A stretch of DNA of 6,363 nt from NCBI GenBank assembly GCA_046497275.1, contig JAWOFX010000042.1:1-6363 (forward strand), written 5' to 3'. Origin of the DNA: Promethearchaeia archaeon. GTDB lineage: Archaea > Asgardarchaeota > Lokiarchaeia > Sigyniarchaeales > SOKP01. Positions 1-6,363 of this stretch are shown piece by piece. Each line of letters opens with the position of its first letter. Positions within the stretch are counted from its first letter, which is position 1. The notes beneath the pieces were generated by a model. It saw only the letters and a program-made list of their open reading frames with translations, was not told where the DNA came from and did not search any database. Made by a program: the position numbers and the translations under genes.

Positions 1-192
1 GCCTCCTTTTTTTCTTGTATTTTTTTCTTGATAGGAATTATATTCTTTTATTATGTTTTCAAACTCTTTTTTGGAAAGTGATACAAAATCTAACTTTCCA
101 CCTTCTTGACTGAAATCTACATAATCTTCATCAAATACAACCCATGTATTGTTATTTATCTCTATCCGTTTATCTTTCCATTTCTCACTCAT
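1..192 (-). CDS. Small hypothetical protein, runs off the left edge (at least 64 aa: MSEKWKDKRIEINNNTWVVFDEDYVDFSQEGGKLDFVSLSKKEFENIIKEYNSYQEKNTRKKGG...)
   Basis: Hand translation; absent from the ORF track because there is no stop in the window. ATG at 192-190 lies 4 nt after the stop of the 197-550 gene, and the frame is open to base 1. AGGAGG at the window edge may be the RBS of a following gene. Confidence 0.75.
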   Translation of the reverse strand, partial: MSEKWKDKRIEINNNTWVVFDEDYVDFSQEGGKLDFVSLSKKEFENIIKEYNSYQEKNTRKKGG

Positions 193-196
193 CTCT

Positions 197-550
197 TTAT
201 TCATTTTTATTAATCCCTCTCTCTTTTGTTGTTGTTATTTTACCATATCTCTCGATGAAGTCTAAGAGATTAGGTAATTTTAAATCTTTTATTTTTTTAG
301 GATATTTTGCATATAATGCTTTAGGTATTTTTCCGATAGGTTGTAAATTAATTTCTTTTGTTTTTTTTGTTTCAGGATTATATTCTGTATCATAAATATA
401 AAAATAGGTCCAATTCCTATCTACTACATGTTTGACATTTGGAAAGTCTAATTCTTGAATGAGTTTTTTGATCTCTTTAAGTGCATCTTCTTGGTTTAAC
501 GTTGCGATCCATTTTATTTTCTCATAGATTTTTTCTAATTGTTCACTCAT
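197..550 (-). CDS. Hypothetical protein, 117 aa, with a possible beta-hairpin nucleic-acid-binding segment (YFYIYDTEYNPETKKTKEINLQPIGKI)
   Basis: ORF track 197..568. Start revised to the MSEQ ATG at 550 because TTATAAAT (581-574) ends 23 nt upstream, typical of a leaderless archaeal mRNA. Confidence 0.8.
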   Translation of the reverse strand: MSEQLEKIYEKIKWIATLNQEDALKEIKKLIQELDFPNVKHVVDRNWTYFYIYDTEYNPETKKTKEINLQPIGKIPKALYAKYPKKIKDLKLPNLLDFIERYGKITTTKERGINKNE

Positions 551-573
551 ATATGGGAGAATAATCATTCTAT

Positions 574-589
574 ATTTATAACCTCTTTC
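574..589 (-). promoter_or_regulatory. Archaeal-type BRE-TATA promoter of the 117-aa gene
   Basis: Minus strand reads GAAAGA-gg-TTATAAAT, 23 nt upstream of the ATG at 550. Confidence 0.6.
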
Positions 590-601
590 TATTAATAGAA
601 A
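586..601. repeat. Perfect 16-bp palindrome TTTCTATTAATAGAAA overlapping the BRE
   Basis: Read directly from the sequence. AT-rich, so chance is not excluded. Confidence 0.5.
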
Positions 602-617
602 AATAATATTAAAAAAA

Positions 618-839
618 TTAAGATAATGATATCCTTAGTCTATTATTCTTGCAGTTAGGACAACAAATCCTATGGATTCGTTCAGTAATACCCTCTAAAT
701 AATGATCTAATTCCTCATAATGATACGAAGTATGGCATTCATAACACCAGAAAACACAATCGTTTAAGGATATTTCTTGTGAGGAGGCATCCCGCTCCTT
801 TTGGGACCCATTTTTGGGTTTTTTTCCAATGGTCATCAT
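618..839 (-). CDS. Small zinc-ribbon protein, 72-73 aa (C-x2-C-x24-C-x2-C)
   Basis: CYEC and CPNC motifs; basic low-complexity N-terminus; TATA (867-860) lies 20-23 nt upstream of ATG 839/836. Confidence 0.75.
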   Translation of the reverse strand: MMTIGKKPKNGSQKERDASSQEISLNDCVFWCYECHTSYHYEELDHYLEGITERIHRICCPNCKNNRLRISLS

Positions 840-859
840 TATTATAGAATCTTTTTTTG

Positions 860-895
860 TATATAAGTCTTTCGACTAACCGAAACATTTATATA
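860..895. promoter_or_regulatory. Back-to-back divergent archaeal BRE-TATA promoters
   Basis: Minus: gtCGAAAga-CTTATATA (876-860). Plus: cCGAAAca-TTTATATA (880-895). They point into the two divergent gene sets. Confidence 0.75.
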
Positions 896-951
896 TCCTA
901 AATCATATCTAGTAACATAACTAAACTAAAAAAATTAAAAAAGTGAGAAAA

Positions 952-1080
952 ATGAAAGTAGAGATTAAAGAAAATGTTTTTACTGAAATGTGTAAGATGA
1001 GGGATGCATATAGACCAAACCAAGATATTATAGAATTCATCAATGATGTTTTACATAATGAATATGAGGAGGAGTATTAA
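952..1080 (+). CDS. RHH/CopG-like microprotein, 42 aa (MKVEIKENVFTEMCKMRDAYRPNQDIIEFINDVLHNEYEEEY)
   Basis: Hand translation, below the ORF-track cutoff. First ATG after the plus-strand promoter, preceded by GTGAG. Alternating N-terminal strand followed by two amphipathic helices; fold call is by pattern only. Confidence 0.65.
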   Translation: MKVEIKENVFTEMCKMRDAYRPNQDIIEFINDVLHNEYEEEY

Positions 1081-1081
1081 G

Positions 1082-1288
1082 ATGGCACCAGAATATAACA
1101 GAAATATGAAATTGATTTACTATACCAACGGGCAGATTGAGATCATTGAAGATGATCCTAACGCAGAAAATAGAAAAGAACAGATTGCTAATAGAAAGTA
1201 TTTGTTTACATTTGAGAACAAATATGAATTATTAGATCTATTGCGATCTGATAAACATCTATGGAAAATAATAAAAAAAATATTATAA
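1082..1288 (+). CDS. Hypothetical protein, 68 aa (MAPEYNRN...)
   Basis: ORF track 1043..1288. Start moved to ATG 1082, which follows GAGGAGGAG and abuts the stop of the 42-aa ORF. Confidence 0.75.
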   Translation: MAPEYNRNMKLIYYTNGQIEIIEDDPNAENRKEQIANRKYLFTFENKYELLDLLRSDKHLWKIIKKIL

Positions 1289-1339
1289 AAAAAAGAGATA
1301 AGGGAGAAAAAATGCATACAAAAAAATGGAGGAATGAAA

Positions 1340-1480
1340 ATGAAAATTGAAATTGACATAAATAGGGAAAATTGGGATCTCCTTTCTGAATATTTCCCTG
1401 AATTAAATGATTTAACCGATATGGAATTATCTCAAAGAACTTCAGAAATTATCAATGCAATATTAAGAAGTGAATTGTAA
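1340..1480 (+). CDS. Second RHH-like microprotein, 46 aa (MKIEIDINRENWDLLSEYFPELNDLTDMELSQRTSEIINAILRSEL)
   Basis: Hand translation. GGAGGA RBS at 1328-1333, 6 nt before the ATG at 1340. Similar pattern to the 952-1080 ORF. Confidence 0.65.
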   Translation: MKIEIDINRENWDLLSEYFPELNDLTDMELSQRTSEIINAILRSEL

Positions 1481-1504
1481 AACCTATATATAATTATAAT
1501 TTAT

Positions 1505-1521
1505 CGAAAAAAATATTTAAA
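1505..1521 (+). promoter_or_regulatory. BRE-TATA promoter for the 221-aa/93-aa gene pair
   Basis: CGAAAAAAA-TATTTAAA, with the same CGAAA element as three other promoters. Confidence 0.55.
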
Positions 1522-1530
1522 AATAAAATA

Positions 1531-1561
1531 ATTTTTTATTTCTCTTTTCTGTTTTCTATTT
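1531..1561 (+). terminator. T-rich tract, probable terminator of the microprotein operon
   Basis: ATTTTTTATTTCTCTTTTCTGTTTTCTATTT, about 50 nt after the stop at 1480. Confidence 0.4.
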
Positions 1562-1603
1562 CAGAGAGCAGGGAGACACAATAAAAACAAAAAAGTGAAA
1601 AAA

Positions 1604-2269
1604 ATGATAAAAAATAAAAAAAAATCATTTGGAAAGGTTTACTCCAAATGGTTTAACGAAGAAATATGGGGGTATGAAACATATCCCTTTCGTTATATCC
1701 ATACAGGATATAATGACGGAAGACATATTCCATCTAAGACCTATTATTTAGATCTCCCGCCTGATATAACTGTAGAAAATATAAAAGGTAAGAAAGAGAG
1801 GGAACTCGTGAGAAAACAACTCTTTACGGAGGAAACCCCGTTTGATGAGGAGGAATTAGTGAGAAATATCATAAAAGATAATTTCTCAAAATACATAATA
1901 TCAAAGATACATTTGATCAGAGACCCTGATTCTATCGATCATCTCATCTCTGCGAAGGGATGGGGGATTGATATAAATGGGAAATCTCTCATATATCTTT
2001 ATGGATATGTAAGAGAGATCCCCAATGAAATAAAAATTGGAGAATTCTTTAATACATTCACTTCAAGAATCTCTACACCCTTGAGGGCACCCTACAATGA
2101 AATCGAGGGAGCCATTTCTCTCTATGGGATGAATGGGATCGATATGAAACCATTTATTCCTGAGATAAAGAAAAGAATTATTAACCATTTTCGAGAGTTT
2201 TATGCTAAAAGTGTTAAATTAACCCTTTTAGAAGAGAAAATTAACTTTAATATAATCAAAGGCGAATAG
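1604..2269 (+). CDS. Hypothetical protein, 221 aa, no recognisable motif
   Basis: ORF track 1595..2269 uses GTG. ATG 1604 is preferred because GTGA-A-run-ATG matches other leaders in the window. Confidence 0.85.
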   Translation: MIKNKKKSFGKVYSKWFNEEIWGYETYPFRYIHTGYNDGRHIPSKTYYLDLPPDITVENIKGKKERELVRKQLFTEETPFDEEELVRNIIKDNFSKYIISKIHLIRDPDSIDHLISAKGWGIDINGKSLIYLYGYVREIPNEIKIGEFFNTFTSRISTPLRAPYNEIEGAISLYGMNGIDMKPFIPEIKKRIINHFREFYAKSVKLTLLEEKINFNIIKGE

Positions 2270-2324
2270 AGAAGCCTATTTCTTAATTCTCTAAAAATAA
2301 ACTAAAATAAAAAAATGAAAAAAA

Positions 2325-2606
2325 ATGGGAAAAGATATAACAATGAGTTTAGAAGAAATGAAAGAAGAATTTGAATATATTAATTGGAATGAGTTATATT
2401 TCTATGCAAAAGATCACGATGAAGCAGGAAAGATCGAAAGGAGACAAAAAAGGCTTCCAGACCCTGCAGTAATACATGGTATTTTAGTTCAGAATGATCG
2501 TTATCGAAACTTACCTTCACATCAGAAAAGAGTGATTGAATTATATAGTAGAATGGAAGCATTAGTAGATTTTGAGCTTCAAACTATTGAATGGATAGAA
2601 AAATAA
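2325..2606 (+). CDS. Hypothetical protein, 93 aa
   Basis: ORF track; hydrophilic helical composition; A-rich leader; followed by a T-tract. Confidence 0.8.
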   Translation: MGKDITMSLEEMKEEFEYINWNELYFYAKDHDEAGKIERRQKRLPDPAVIHGILVQNDRYRNLPSHQKRVIELYSRMEALVDFELQTIEWIEK

Positions 2607-2640
2607 CCTTCTTTTTTTTTATTATATTTTTTTTATTTTT
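2607..2640 (+). terminator. Oligo-T terminator between convergent genes
   Basis: CCTTCTTTTTTTTTATTATATTTTTTTT directly after the TAA at 2606. Confidence 0.6.
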
Positions 2641-3130
2641 ATGAATAGAAATTTGGAGTTCCAAATCCATTAGATTTGAATTTCCCTGAGGAGAATTCTT
2701 GAATAATTCCAACTGCACACACATCAATAAAAAAGAGCCTTCGTATAGTATCGGAGAGAGTATTTACTTTAATTTCCGAATCATCTTCATAATGTAGATG
2801 ATATACTAGTCCATAGTTTTTATTTTTGAAATCTAATTTATGATGAATCTCCTTAATCATAAAAAATTTAGAAATGATCCCAAAAAGCTCTTTTTGTTTA
2901 TCTTCATTCAAATCCTTAAGATGTTCGGGAGAGATTTTAGTCATTGTTTGGATCTCTATCCCTTGTTTCTTTTTAGGTTTGGCGATTATAAAGGTTCTCC
3001 CTTTTTTATTAGGATATTGAAATCGAAAGCCAAACTCTAAGTTAGGATCGTGGAGTGTTTCTTTCAATTGACCAATAGATTTTATAAATTTTCTAATTCT
3101 TACTTGTAATGTGTTAGGCATACTTATCAT
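2639..3130 (-). CDS. DUF2299-like (YbjN/T3SS-chaperone-fold) archaeal protein, 160-163 aa
   Basis: DPNLEFGFRFQYP...KPK...TKISPEH...L and a C-terminal ..YS resemble, from memory, archaeal DUF2299 proteins, especially lokiarchaeal ones. TTTAAAAA (3158-3151) upstream. Not verified by search. Confidence 0.6.
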   Translation of the reverse strand: MISMPNTLQVRIRKFIKSIGQLKETLHDPNLEFGFRFQYPNKKGRTFIIAKPKKKQGIEIQTMTKISPEHLKDLNEDKQKELFGIISKFFMIKEIHHKLDFKNKNYGLVYHLHYEDDSEIKVNTLSDTIRRLFFIDVCAVGIIQEFSSGKFKSNGFGTPNFYS

Positions 3131-3200
3131 ATAATATATTTTAATATGAATTTTTAAACTAATTTATTTTAACTTTAATAGTTTTTTCCTGGTATAGAAG

Positions 3201-3677
3201 TTATAAATATGATGAAAGAATCATTTGTTCAGGAAGGAAAAACTCTAAATGTAGTCTATAATTAGTTCTAAGTTTTTTTGCTGGGATAATTTTATGATCG
3301 ATTAATGATAAATCATCTTTATTGAAACTTTTCTTATTTAGTTTTTGTCGGAGTAATTTAAATTGATCTATATCTATTAATACAATTTTTTCGAATTCAT
3401 GTAAACTCACTAAGAAATATGCATCTCCTGATTTCTTCTTGAATTCAATTAATTCCCGGATTTGATGATCTTTAAATCGTGAAAATGAAATCAATTTTCG
3501 TTTGGTTTTTTTTAATTCTAATGCGATATTCTTTTCTCGTGATAGTAAAATACGATCTACCGTTTGTTTTGGTTTTTGATAGGTAGGCACATCAGTTTCA
3601 TTAATCATAAAAAAATAGTGTTTCAAATATTTTTTATATCCTAAATCAAATGCTTTCTCTAATTTATTTGTAGCCAT
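3201..3677 (-). CDS. recU: RecU-family Holliday junction resolvase (PD-(D/E)xK nuclease), 158 aa
   Basis: LE..F...YKKYL N-terminus; QTVD41...IALE54LK56; SRFKDHQIRELIEF...GDAYFLVS parallels RecU STTD...FEAKET...NFHDHQIEHM...GICFVIIS. The ATG at 3677 is supported by the duplicated copy, which conserves MATNKLEK. Confidence 0.8.
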   Translation of the reverse strand: MATNKLEKAFDLGYKKYLKHYFFMINETDVPTYQKPKQTVDRILLSREKNIALELKKTKRKLISFSRFKDHQIRELIEFKKKSGDAYFLVSLHEFEKIVLIDIDQFKLLRQKLNKKSFNKDDLSLIDHKIIPAKKLRTNYRLHLEFFLPEQMILSSYL

Positions 3678-3743
3678 ACTTATAAGAAAATAAAATATCA
3701 AGATTCATCTTTAGAAAGAGTATGGTAATTTAGTGATTTATTT
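3550..3743. repeat. Long direct repeat, copy 1 (R element plus recU codons 1-43); partner at 5482-5675
   Basis: Ungapped hand alignment at offset 1,932; 27 mismatches over 3553-3743 (191 nt, about 86% identity). Confidence 0.95.
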
Positions 3744-3749
3744 GGTTTT
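3697..3749. repeat. R element copy 1 (ATCAAGATTCATCTTTAGAAAGAGTATGGTAATTTAGTGATTTATTTGGTTTT)
   Basis: 49/53 identical to 4553-4605 (first 25 nt identical); 40/47 identical to 5629-5675. Confidence 0.95.
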
Positions 3750-3759
3750 ATAGTAATAA

Positions 3760-3784
3760 TTCTCAAAAGTGCCACTTTTGAGAA
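3760..3784. promoter_or_regulatory. 25-bp palindrome TTCTCAAAAGTG-C-CACTTTTGAGAA (12-bp perfect arms); operator-like or cruciform-forming
   Basis: Read directly. Lies between divergent genes and overlaps the BRE-like GAGAAAG of the 237-aa gene promoter. Confidence 0.7.
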
Positions 3785-3795
3785 AGATATTTAAG
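3780..3795 (+). promoter_or_regulatory. BRE-TATA-like promoter of the 237-aa gene
   Basis: GAGAAAGA-TATTTAAG, about 30 nt upstream of the ATG at 3825. Confidence 0.5.
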
Positions 3796-3824
3796 TGAGA
3801 ACTTCCTCTAGTTTCTTGAGAAAA

Positions 3825-4538
3825 ATGACTATTGAAAAAGTTATAGAAGAAATAAAGAACTATAATAACTCTTTAGAAGGAGTTTGGAAATTAAATAGAA
3901 GAATGAGGAATATTGAAGAATTCATTGATTTTATCTTAGATTATTTCGAAATGAAAGAGATTAAAGATCGTTTTCATGATGATTTCCTATATCCAAATGA
4001 GAGAGAAAGTTATTATCGTCAGAAGTCAGAGAATTTTAATTATATTGAACATTTTCTAAGACATATTAAACCATTTTTATTGTTGGCATATAGATTGTCT
4101 TGGAATGAAGATATTTGTAAATCTTTAGAAGAAAAGAATCTTACTGAAGAGTCTATTGAAAATATGATATATAATTTTACTAATCTAGAGAGAACAGGAA
4201 GGCCAAGAAAATTTTATGAATTTGAATTAGAAGCCTTTCAGAACTTTAAAAAAAAATATGAAAAATTAAAAGATTTCTATGAAGATAAAGAGGAACAAGA
4301 ACGAAAATCTTTAATGGATTATGCAAAAGCTATCAAAAAATACAATATAACAAAAACATATCTTCACGAGTTTAGAATTGAATTTAGACATTTCAAAAGA
4401 AAAATAGACAAATGTAGTCAATCTACTCTTTACCGATATGATAAGGATTTGATTCTTTTTGAAAAGATTTCGTATTTAGTAGAACTTCTCTTAGATGATT
4501 ATCAACATTTTGAATATATTATACAGAATAAATTATAA
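3825..4538 (+). CDS. All-alpha putative DNA-binding protein, 237 aa, with a split Hin/homeodomain-like HTH signature (GRPRK ... SQSTLYRY)
   Basis: ORF track 3795..4538 uses GTG inside the TATA region; ATG 3825 is preferred. The motifs resemble Hin GRPRA...GVSTLYRYF but are 68 rather than about 28 residues apart. The CDS is solid; the function is tentative. Confidence 0.8.
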   Translation: MTIEKVIEEIKNYNNSLEGVWKLNRRMRNIEEFIDFILDYFEMKEIKDRFHDDFLYPNERESYYRQKSENFNYIEHFLRHIKPFLLLAYRLSWNEDICKSLEEKNLTEESIENMIYNFTNLERTGRPRKFYEFELEAFQNFKKKYEKLKDFYEDKEEQERKSLMDYAKAIKKYNITKTYLHEFRIEFRHFKRKIDKCSQSTLYRYDKDLILFEKISYLVELLLDDYQHFEYIIQNKL

Positions 4539-4550
4539 TTCTTTTTTTCT
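4539..4550 (+). terminator. Oligo-T terminator of the 237-aa gene
   Basis: TTCTTTTTTTCT right after the TAA, immediately before R copy 2. Confidence 0.55.
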
Positions 4551-4552
4551 GA

Positions 4553-4605
4553 ATCAAGATTCATCTTTAGAAAGAGTGTGATGATTTAGTGAATTATTTG
4601 GTTTT
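4553..4605. repeat. R element copy 2 (stand-alone, not followed by recU)
   Basis: 49/53 identity to copy 1; sits between the convergent 3' ends of the 237-aa and 171-aa genes. Confidence 0.95.
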
Positions 4606-4622
4606 CAGTTTTGTTATTTATA

Positions 4623-5138
4623 TTATTGATTTACATAAATCAAGATGAGGGGAACTTTATGTCCATAATAATGACAAGTATTAATTCTATGATTTCCATC
4701 ATTTCCCATTAAATATCCTCTTTCATCATCCCATATTCTAGTAACTGGAGAAATGGATTCTATATAATCATAAATCCCATCAGGAATATGATGTGTATCG
4801 GAATGCTCAGATGCACATAACTCCGAAGATGGAGATAAATATAGAAAACGAATATCAGTTATATCATCCTTACTATACCCACAATCATAAAGCATACTAA
4901 TTGCATCATAATAATTCTCATCTAAATATACAATCTTCTCCTTTAATGAGAGGGTCTTTGTTCTTGTCTTCAGTTCCTCTAAAATATGATTTCTTGGTTC
5001 TCTTTTTGTTTTTGTTTCATCTATATTCTTATATCTTCTTCCTTTGATATGATAGTGTTGTTTATGAGGTTTTACCTTCTCTGTTTTCCCGTTCTTCTTA
5101 CGAATGTATCCGCTCTTTTTCTTTATAATTTTTGGCAT
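4623..5138 (-). CDS. ParB/Srx-like domain protein with a highly basic N-terminal arm, 171 aa
   Basis: C-terminal SPVTRIWD..GYLMGNDGNHRINTCHYYGHKVPLIL fits the ParB/Srx P...DG(H/N)HR..a...g..vP pattern (DGNHR at 4700-4686). N-terminus KKKSGYIRKKNGKTEKVKPHK. Confidence 0.7.
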   Translation of the reverse strand: MPKIIKKKSGYIRKKNGKTEKVKPHKQHYHIKGRRYKNIDETKTKREPRNHILEELKTRTKTLSLKEKIVYLDENYYDAISMLYDCGYSKDDITDIRFLYLSPSSELCASEHSDTHHIPDGIYDYIESISPVTRIWDDERGYLMGNDGNHRINTCHYYGHKVPLILIYVNQ

Positions 5139-5241
5139 AACTTATCTAATATAAATATAAGTGATTATCTTACTTAAAAATAAAACAAACAGATATTTAA
5201 GCATTAATAGAAATAATTTGTTAAAATAAAGTATCTTGTAT

Positions 5242-5481
5242 TTATATTATTGGTTTGAGTTCTTTCTCTATCGCTTTTCGTTCCTTTCTTAAATCACTAA
5301 TATGATCACTAATATTTATGCCTATTTTTGCATATAAGCTGGGATATCTTTTTGCATCTTCTATCTTTTCATCAATGTTTTTTATTTTAGAAGAATAATT
5401 ATAAAATGATCTTAATTGTGATAATGCAGGATTATTGGGATCAATTGCCTTTATTCGATGATATGCTTTACTAGATACTTG
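5242..5481 (-). pseudogene. Headless ORF remnant, 79 codons plus stop, no start codon (QVSSKAYHRIKAIDPNNPALSQLRSFYNYSSKIKNIDEKIEDAKRYPSLYAKIGINISDHISDLRKERKAIEKELKPII)
   Basis: Hand translation. Begins exactly where recU homology ends, in the -1 frame relative to the recU fragment. Confidence 0.6.
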
Positions 5482-5609
5482 ATGCGATCTACCGTTTGTT
5501 TTGGTTTTTGATAAGTAGGCACATCAGTTTCGTTAATTACAAAGAAATATGAACTAAGATATTTTTCATAGCCTAAATCAAATGCTTTCTCTAATTTGTT
5601 TGTAGCCAT
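5451..5609 (-). pseudogene. recU: Truncated recU paralog, 52 aa (43 RecU-like residues plus 9 unrelated)
   Basis: MATNKLEKAFDLGYEKYLSSYFFVINETDVPTYQKPKQTVDRI-KYLVKHIIE*; 39/43 aa identical to the intact gene; lacks the ExK catalytic motif. Confidence 0.85.
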
Positions 5610-5675
5610 AATTACAAGAAAGTAGGATATGAAGATTCATCTTTAGGAAGAGTCTATTAATTTAGTAATTTGTTT
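5482..5675. repeat. Long direct repeat, copy 2 (includes R copy 3 at 5629-5675)
   Basis: See copy 1 at 3550-3743. Confidence 0.95.
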
Positions 5676-5688
5676 AAAAAAAAAGAGT
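5676..5688 (-). terminator. Oligo-T terminator of the 104-aa gene, directly before R copy 3
   Basis: Minus strand reads CTCTTTTTTTTT about 20 nt after the stop at 5704. Confidence 0.55.
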
Positions 5689-5703
5689 AGAATTAATTTA
5701 TGA

Positions 5704-6018
5704 TTACCTAGATCCCCAAACTTTTAATCCAATTAACATATTAAGCATTTCTTTTAGTTCTTTCTTCTCTTCATTTCCTTTTATGATGAAGATCTTTTCA
5801 TTAATGATTTTCTCTATGTCCTTTTCTTCTAATTTCGCATATTTCCCTTTAAGCATATGTTCACCTCTATCACAATACGATCCTATTTTTTCATTATAAA
5901 GGAATCTAGATATTGCTTCTAAAGGACACATTAATACACCAGAGAATAACCATTCTTTTTGATCTTCTGATGCTTCCTTTGGAAATAAGGATTCAGAATA
6001 GTCCCAATGTAAAGGCAT
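5704..6018 (-). CDS. Hypothetical protein, 104 aa
   Basis: ORF track; strong RBS 10 nt upstream, own promoter and terminator. Confidence 0.85.
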   Translation of the reverse strand: MPLHWDYSESLFPKEASEDQKEWLFSGVLMCPLEAISRFLYNEKIGSYCDRGEHMLKGKYAKLEEKDIEKIINEKIFIIKGNEEKKELKEMLNMLIGLKVWGSR

Positions 6019-6028
6019 TTTTCCTTTC

Positions 6029-6037
6029 TCACCTCCT
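6029..6037 (-). promoter_or_regulatory. Shine-Dalgarno AGGAGGTGA
   Basis: Complementary to the 16S 3' tail UCACCUCCU; 10 nt from the ATG at 6018. Confidence 0.75.
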
Positions 6038-6083
6038 TTCTGTTTTATTTGACTAAATCCTTATGATCTATAATGAAACATTC

Positions 6084-6099
6084 CATAAATACTTTTCGG
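6084..6099 (-). promoter_or_regulatory. BRE-TATA promoter of the 104-aa gene
   Basis: cCGAAAAg-TATTTATG on the minus strand. Confidence 0.5.
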
Positions 6100-6250
6100 T
6101 TATTCTTCTTGGAGAGAATTTGTTTAAAGAGGATTTGGGAGAATATCGATCCTTAAGAAAATTCTAGATCAGGAGTCAATCTATATAGTTGATCAAGAAT
6201 TCTATATATTTCTTCTGCTGATCTCCAGCAAAAAAAGGTCTTTTAATTTT

Positions 6251-6363
6251 TTAGATCCCTTGTTCTTCCCAAGTAGCAGGAGTCTTCACACAAAATCTAC
6301 AACTTAATCTGTTCAAATTCTTTTTTTCATACAAAGGATTAAGTTTAATATTATGATTTTTGA
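6251..6363 (-). CDS. C-terminal end of a probable PAPS-reductase/PP-loop family protein (...KNHNIKLNPLYEKKNLNRLSCRFCVKTPATWEEQGI*)
   Basis: Hand translation, frame from 6361; the start lies outside the window. HNI..NPLY....RLSCxxC matches the family pattern l..nPLY..G..R.gC..C. Only 36 aa are visible. Confidence 0.5.
   Translation of the reverse strand, partial: KNHNIKLNPLYEKKNLNRLSCRFCVKTPATWEEQGI

Follow-up and report, generated by a model that had tools for sequence, protein, structure and literature searches.

The exchange of modules which makes the genomes of phages and plasmids mosaic is covered by the classical modular theory, with the 'boundary sequences' of lambdoid phages as its example. 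Integron cassettes are single, mostly promoter-less open reading frames (ORFs) placed in one orientation. In T4-type phages, repeated promoter-bearing intergenic segments, the promoter-early stem-loops (PeSLs), flank small accessory or ORFan modules, and related genomes differ by insertions, deletions and replacements which end at these segments (PMC2839356; PMC4122927). The PeSLs are about 100 bp long, are present in many copies per genome, carry a terminator hairpin and each drive the adjacent ORF (PMC2839356; PMC4122927). Loop-out of a circle followed by Campbell-type re-insertion, through homologous recombination, was proposed as their mechanism (Arbiol et al. 2010, PMC2839356; Comeau et al. 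2014, PMC4122927). By analogy, these cassettes appear to be the nearest described system for the layout analysed here in contig C152, which was binned with an Asgard archaeal genome. The window, which is the whole stretch of DNA analysed, is this entire contig of 6,363 bp, and a segment of 53 nucleotides (nt), named R, was identified three times in it, one copy lying before an intact recU gene. In a preliminary description R was taken for an integron-like attachment (att) or cassette site, at which small circles had been integrated in nested fashion. The comparison with relatives leads to another explanation, namely that R is probably the promoter and leader of a self-contained recU module, and that its extra copies are scars of recombination between diverged relatives.

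The three copies of R are in direct orientation with spacings of 856 and 1,076 bp, and the repeat search agreed in this with the preliminary description. A larger, ungapped repeat of 194 nt with 86% identity (3550-3743 vs 5482-5675) spans R and the first 43 codons of recU, in keeping with the earlier claim that copies 1 and 3 lead into a recU start. Searched against the whole 3.85-Mb genome, the R copies gave E values of 1.5e-15 and 3e-59, and no further copy of R was present elsewhere in this genome, so the repeats are far beyond chance. R1 and R2 differ at four of 53 positions and share an exact 25-mer, and an exact 15-mer is common to all three copies; the longest exact runs are 29 nt in the R1/R3 region and 25 nt between R1 and R2. 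Derived bases missing from R3 and from the relatives are shared by R1 and R2, each of which also has private changes, and these two are sister copies which have diverged since. A fourth, weak R-like stretch (3850-3892, 72% over 43 nt) was observed inside the coding region of the gene for the protein of 237 amino acids (aa), which is probably chance in A/T-rich sequence.

Eleven relatives of RecU, with 52-84% identity, were found in public metagenomes. The RecU alignment gave one distant locus (L028, 52%) among metagenome contigs and none among viral contigs, and the single RecU protein gave no relatives among viral and genome contigs. In every close relative (L008-L013 and L016-L018) an R-like motif was present at -20 to -72 of recU. 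A profile made from the R of the relatives, searched through 20 kb of L008 and 9 kb of L010 among others, found one copy per related locus, always before recU, and three copies in the window only. R1, which has the TAAATAAAT motif, contains the TATA-box-like TAAATAAATCACTAAA and then CAY-ACTCTTTCTAAAGAT, and in the relatives the order is a T-run, TAAATAAATYACTAAA, about six bases, CAC and ACTCTTTCTAAAGAT. The exact core of R (a 22-mer with one degenerate base) had no match in viral, metagenome and species-genome collections. Because of its position before recU and the TATA-box-like element, R is predicted to be the recU promoter together with the start of a leader of about 40 nt. The preliminary description had itself named a conserved recU 5' untranslated region or promoter as the alternative, and the single copy at the same position in all close relatives agrees with it.

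The identification of recU as a Holliday junction resolvase gene held. Its product matched Pfam PF03838 (RecU) with 43.8 bits against a cut-off of 25 bits (E 3.5e-11), and phrog_843, 'Holliday junction resolvase', with an E value of 8.6e-19. Residues D41, E54 and K56 are invariant in an alignment of 12 family members and the catalytic D...E-x-K is kept; the gene is therein predicted to encode a bona fide RecU-type resolvase.

The extent of homology gives the boundaries of the module. The alignment of the window with L016-L018 covers 3201-3739; it begins at the stop codon of recU and stops at the distal edge of R. That with L013 covers 3201-3743, and that with L012 covers 2967-3743; for the R3 copy, the alignment with L012 extends to 5685. 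Homology between L010 and L008 sets in again 68-69 nt before the recU ATG. In window/L012, window/L016, L010/L008 and L010/L011, homology ends at the distal edge of R. Since it runs from the recU stop to this edge, R and recU appear to be one promoter-plus-gene module of about 540 bp, common to otherwise unrelated backbones. In locus L027, recU is 80% identical and has the same downstream gene as in the window, and the end of this contig matches window 3761-3850 at 83%, a stretch which covers the palindrome and the beginning of the 237-aa gene, again transcribed away from recU; the spacer between the two genes is different there (420 nt). Because the same divergent arrangement recurs in L027, the pair of recU and the 237-aa gene looks like backbone and not like a captured circle, and no direct repeats were found to flank the 237-aa homologues in other elements. 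On the other side of recU, in L016-L018, the stop codon directly adjoins a homologue of the gene for the 221-aa protein (window 1604-2269), at the 3' end of that homologue (2228-2294 in the window vs 1096-1165 in L016); the two genes at window 2325-3130 are missing, so a breakpoint also lies downstream of recU.

Of the three modules on the contig, R1-recU is intact and the other two, R3 with 43 recU codons and R2 alone, are decayed. The truncated allele behind R3, recU', differs from recU at 16 nucleotides, ten of them at third codon positions, and seven of the 11 changed codons are synonymous; it stands at about 86-88% to recU and is equally far from L012, which comes from another sample. This recU' is foreign to the intact gene, and because of the third-position bias and the L012-like distance it would come from a separately evolving, functional recU of a third, diverged lineage. 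It ends just after D41 and lacks E-x-K, therefore the fragment cannot be active. Moreover, recU' is out of frame with its neighbour X' and reads into a stop at 5451. X' has no start codon and aligns from its first residue to residues 627-693 of a 919-aa protein (P0026) with 45% identity (E 1.1e-4 against the library, 2e-14 in the pairwise comparison). Since two truncated genes are butted out of frame at recU'|X', the junction points to an illegitimate joint or deletion rather than to crossing-over at a fixed site. R2 stops 20 nt before the expected position of the recU ATG; it lies directly against the T-run which terminates the 237-aa gene, and it does not lead into any ORF. The nested captured circles of the preliminary description were not upheld, with the 1,076-bp unit edged by two truncated genes out of frame and the 856-bp unit recurring in L027. 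In-place tandem duplication was also considered for the 194-bp repeat and was rejected, as recU' is diverged like an allele of another sample and shows a pattern of purifying selection; further, R3 has other genes upstream of it than R1 and R2 have.

Recombination of the following kind most likely produced the layout. The R-recU module is common to a family of small elements; these mobile elements are probably plasmids, or else integrative elements, of Asgard archaea of the Lokiarchaeia type. Lineages of such elements which had diverged, at least two and probably three of them, may have recombined by pairing or exchange inside this common module, either through co-integration followed by deletions or through out-of-register joins, and illegitimate joints or deletions may afterwards have cost the redundant copies their 3' part. 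In this reading R would act as a passive homology patch and a module boundary beside a variable region, and not as a dedicated attachment site. Of the recombination at R proposed earlier, the part that remains is a layout which arose by recombination of diverged elements at the R-recU module, but an att-type site is no longer part of it.

Table 1. Coordinates of the R copies and of the genes and features around them in the 6,363-bp window.
Feature	Coordinates	Strand	Basis or remark
R1, recU upstream segment, -20 to -72 from ATG	3697-3749	-	Repeat search, profile
R2, orphan copy of the recU upstream segment	4553-4605	-	92% to R1
R3, upstream segment of the truncated recU' module	5629-5681	-	75% to R1
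recU, intact, 158 aa, Holliday junction resolvase-like	3201-3677	-	Pfam PF03838, PHROG, family alignment
Perfect palindrome, 25 nt, 12-nt arms	3760-3784		Just 5' of the 237-aa gene
237-aa protein gene, divergent from recU, followed by a T-run	3825-4538	+	Homologues, AlphaFold model
171-aa ORFan, C-terminal DGNHR motif	4623-5138	-	ORF list; weak ParB_N-like lead
X', start-less, 5'-truncated remnant of a larger gene	5242-5481	-	Alignment to P0026
recU', 5' part (43 codons) of another, diverged recU allele	5481-5609	-	Repeat and codon comparison
104-aa ORFan upstream of R3	5704-6018	-	ORF list

The region upstream of R was found to be variable in the relatives. A collinear stretch, from a PadR-like gene past a tyrosine integrase up to a small divergent gene, is shared by L010 and L008, and beyond it they are wholly different for about 3.4 kb. 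The cargo of L010 (3285-6760) is composed of eight ORFans in 3.5 kb, and that of L008 (6536-9931) is a type IV CRISPR-Cas-like module. In L011, from the same metagenome as L010, the left flank is joined straight to R (182-187), giving an empty site. The site upstream of R, as compared among these sequences, is cargo-variable with three states, empty, ORFans and type IV CRISPR-Cas. Neither a second R nor a common core was found at the cargo ends of L008 and L010, and the variation fits replacement by recombination in flanks that are conserved, or else insertion by an illegitimate event into a permissive gap that separates two divergent promoters. Downstream of recU the relatives vary just as much, so R is not unique as a breakpoint. 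A gene-capture hotspot had been proposed for R, of which the variable site was recovered in the relatives, but the flanking repeats were not. L008 is a 27-kb element with a tyrosine integrase and a serine resolvase, and its module (6784-9944), which adjoins recU (10001-10474), contains RAMP/Csf2-like, Csf3, PAPS-reductase/CysH-like and Cas6 genes according to precomputed Pfam labels. The same Cas6-recU adjacency was seen in a second independent contig, L009.

Active shuffling as in the PeSLs could also be read from this variation. Frequent homologous recombination at R would loop out mini-circles of 856, 1,076 or 1,932 bp, which would be re-inserted Campbell-style in related elements; this is the mechanism first described for the locus, driven by general recombination, perhaps with the RecU of the element, in place of an att-specific recombinase. 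Direct repeats of 53-194 bp do flank modules here, and deletion between R copies would yield the natural layout of upstream gene, R and recU, as in L012. The three states of the upstream site (L011, L010 and L008) would also agree with it, and the mechanism is documented in T4-type phages (PMC2839356). However, the relatives have a single R and no repeats around their cargo, one of the two units consists of gene fragments, and the other is the conserved neighbour of recU in L027. With 75-92% identity and exact runs of 29 nt at most, the repeats are poor substrates, and R2 drives no gene. Shuffling of this kind is rather unlikely. It is likewise unlikely, and somewhat more doubtful, that R is an active recombination hotspot of an archaeal (Asgard-associated) element family, where cargo from ORFans to type IV CRISPR-Cas enters and leaves as circles or by exchange between co-resident elements, possibly with the help of RecU. 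Precise circles at R, if true, would extend the promoter-cassette shuffling of T4-type phages to archaeal elements, as an archaeal counterpart of the PeSL mini-circles.

An assembly artefact was considered as well, in which variants of co-occurring strains would have been joined into a chimera at short words in R or in the 5' end of recU. The contig was assembled from a metagenome, is only 6.4 kb long and is contained in no second assembly, and variants of the element family do co-occur in single samples, such as L010 and L011. The final k of usual assemblers is larger than 25-29 nt, the length of the longest exact runs, and each copy of R differs from the others by substitutions of its own and is flanked on either side by unique sequence, so the adjacencies recU'|X' and terminator|R2 must exist in some real molecule. 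The short exact runs and the unique flanks argue against a chimera, which is very unlikely.

The conserved core of R contains overlapping short inverted repeats, AAGA-N4-TCTT and TCTT-N-AAAG, and a weakly ParB_N-like gene lies between the copies. R could then be a functional multi-copy binding site for a protein, such as a centromere-like site bound by the 171-aa protein, an iteron or an operator used in common. Relatives with one R have no homologue of the 171-aa protein, though, R always tracks recU, and R3 is already down to 75%, which makes a binding site highly improbable. For the 171-aa protein, structural neighbours in the Atlas include ParB_N clusters, a weak lead with TM scores of 0.47 or below; no homologue was found among 5.8 billion proteins and there was no Pfam match. 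The preliminary description had placed a ParB-like gene and a headless ORF in the 1,076-bp unit; both ORFs are present, but the ParB assignment goes no further than this lead.

Several points weigh against scars of recombination as the explanation. The three-copy state is known from one contig of one assembly, and the promoter function of R is predicted from position and a TATA-like motif. The exact 15-mer in all copies and the 25-mer of R1 and R2 would look alike in a site-specific core. In addition, the distal edge of R survives in both scars and the part downstream of it is gone, a regularity which an active mechanism at R could also leave.

A true att or cassette site, served as in an integron-like system by a recombinase of the tyrosine or serine type whose gene lies elsewhere on the element, would account for the common 15-mer. 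A Phage_integrase is encoded in L008 and in L010, at about 4.3 kb upstream from recU, and L008 also encodes a Resolvase. But a conserved promoter predicts the same shared 15-mer and 25-mer. No recombinase family was found among the proteins of the window with Pfam and PHROGs, in a search covering the 6.4-kb contig only, and the cargo of L008 and L010 ends without a second R or common core. Truncated genes stand at the edge of the supposed cassette, and the units have their own promoters and mixed orientations. RNAalifold on eight R-type sequences gave 0 predicted pairs for the consensus and no attC-like hairpin, R had no Rfam match, and an Rfam scan of the whole window gave nothing near the gathering score. 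An att site is thus hardly credible, and the att or integron-like reading of R gives way to that of a recU upstream segment present once in each close relative. The promoter and leader of a recU module, with recombination scars as its extra copies, is kept as the favoured explanation.

The 237-aa gene is preceded by a palindrome of the type TCTCAAAAGTG-N-CACTTTTGAGA, which is kept upstream of this gene family in unrelated elements; related palindromes precede the homologues in L021/L022 (L021 about 3040-3065) and L019/L020 (L019 about 7965-7990). It is a likely operator, perhaps autoregulatory, of the 237-aa gene family. Twelve homologues of the protein were found with 41-49% identity, several of them on integrase-bearing contigs, and residues R123-G125-R126-R128 and T201-Y203-R204-D206-K207 are invariant in the family. 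The AlphaFold model is all-helical and confident for residues 130-237 only. The protein had no Pfam match, and Foldseek against the PDB gave nothing at E <= 0.001. A wide search with VIA gave a best Z of 7.6, to generic helical bundles, from which neither a helix-turn-helix nor any other function is read. In the 856-bp unit the gene, palindrome and T-run described earlier are all present, but the helix-turn-helix label was not confirmed, with no Pfam match and no informative fold. The 104-aa ORFan upstream of R3 had no homologue in any related locus compared.

The contig has 27.6% G+C and the genome bin of 3.85 Mb in 188 contigs has 30.4%; an archaeal TATA-binding protein is encoded in the bin. 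No paralogues of the window proteins were found elsewhere in the bin, except one distant DUF2299 protein. RecU was not found in a protein search of six genomes of the same genus, and a search of 60 related genomes gave two weak partial matches only, so an element with recU would not seem to be a common resident of the relatives of the host. Because the bin has no paralogues of the window proteins and RecU is nearly absent from the genomes of relatives, the contig appears to be a piece of a mobile element that was binned together with the host. In protein searches, the proteins of the window were found on this one contig only. CRISPR-spacer-like matches between the contig and the rest of the genome were only A/T-rich and of low complexity, with no link to the host.

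GATC occurs 33 times in the flanking 4.4 kb vs about 11 expected from base composition, and a single time in 3555-5303, the 1.75 kb which hold the 237-aa and 171-aa genes. By part, 19 were observed vs 8.2 expected in 1-3200, and 10 vs 1.7 in 5682-6363; the excess in the outer parts of the contig (1-3554 and 5304-6363) is 2-6x. This pattern may point to another origin of the middle part (3555-5303), or to a history of methylation and restriction, and the signal accords with a foreign origin of the middle part.

Three plus-strand genes have near-identical, A-rich initiation regions, AAAAAAGTGA[G/A]AAAAATG, at 930-970, 1582-1622 and 2303-2343. These regions hold a GTGA Shine-Dalgarno-like element, and recU has no such element. 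The exact 16-mer GTATATAAGTCTTTCG was present in the window (858-875, about 860-875), in L010 (about 3176-3195) and in L011 (about 73-92). In all three it sits in a divergent promoter region beside a small minus-strand gene, and the adjoining proteins are unrelated between the window and L010/L011; it may be a shared promoter element or chance.

Compared with an integron (IntI, attI, attC), the locus shares direct repeats which alternate with small gene-bearing units beside a recombination-related gene. In contrast, no integrase lies beside the R array in the 6.4-kb contig and no imperfect hairpin of the attC type is formed, the units carry their own promoters, point in both directions and include truncated genes, and R itself would be the promoter of a neighbouring gene. 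Each integron criterion examined here gave a negative result, and the layout provides no evidence for a new gene-capture machine. The likeness to PeSL cassettes goes further, as three direct copies of the predicted promoter-bearing R flank two modules, and the relatives of the window differ by indels and replacements bounded by R. Unlike the PeSLs, R is present in one copy per related locus and in three copies on one contig, with none elsewhere in the host genome. It has no hairpin and belongs to one gene, recU; R2 drives nothing, one module is made of gene fragments, and the host domain is Archaea.

With mosaic exchange in phages and plasmids the locus has in common a conserved gene and promoter shared by unrelated backbones, homology which breaks at the edges of gene and promoter, and out-of-register or illegitimate joints which leave partial duplications and pseudogene scars. 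There is no difference of principle; what is new is the double scar and the setting, in elements which carry RecU and were binned with an Asgard genome. The R-recU module lies at the edge of a variable region which holds type IV CRISPR-Cas in one relative, and out-of-register recombination would have left datable scars here. The contig may serve as a small, clear illustration of how such Asgard-linked mobile elements come to be mosaic.

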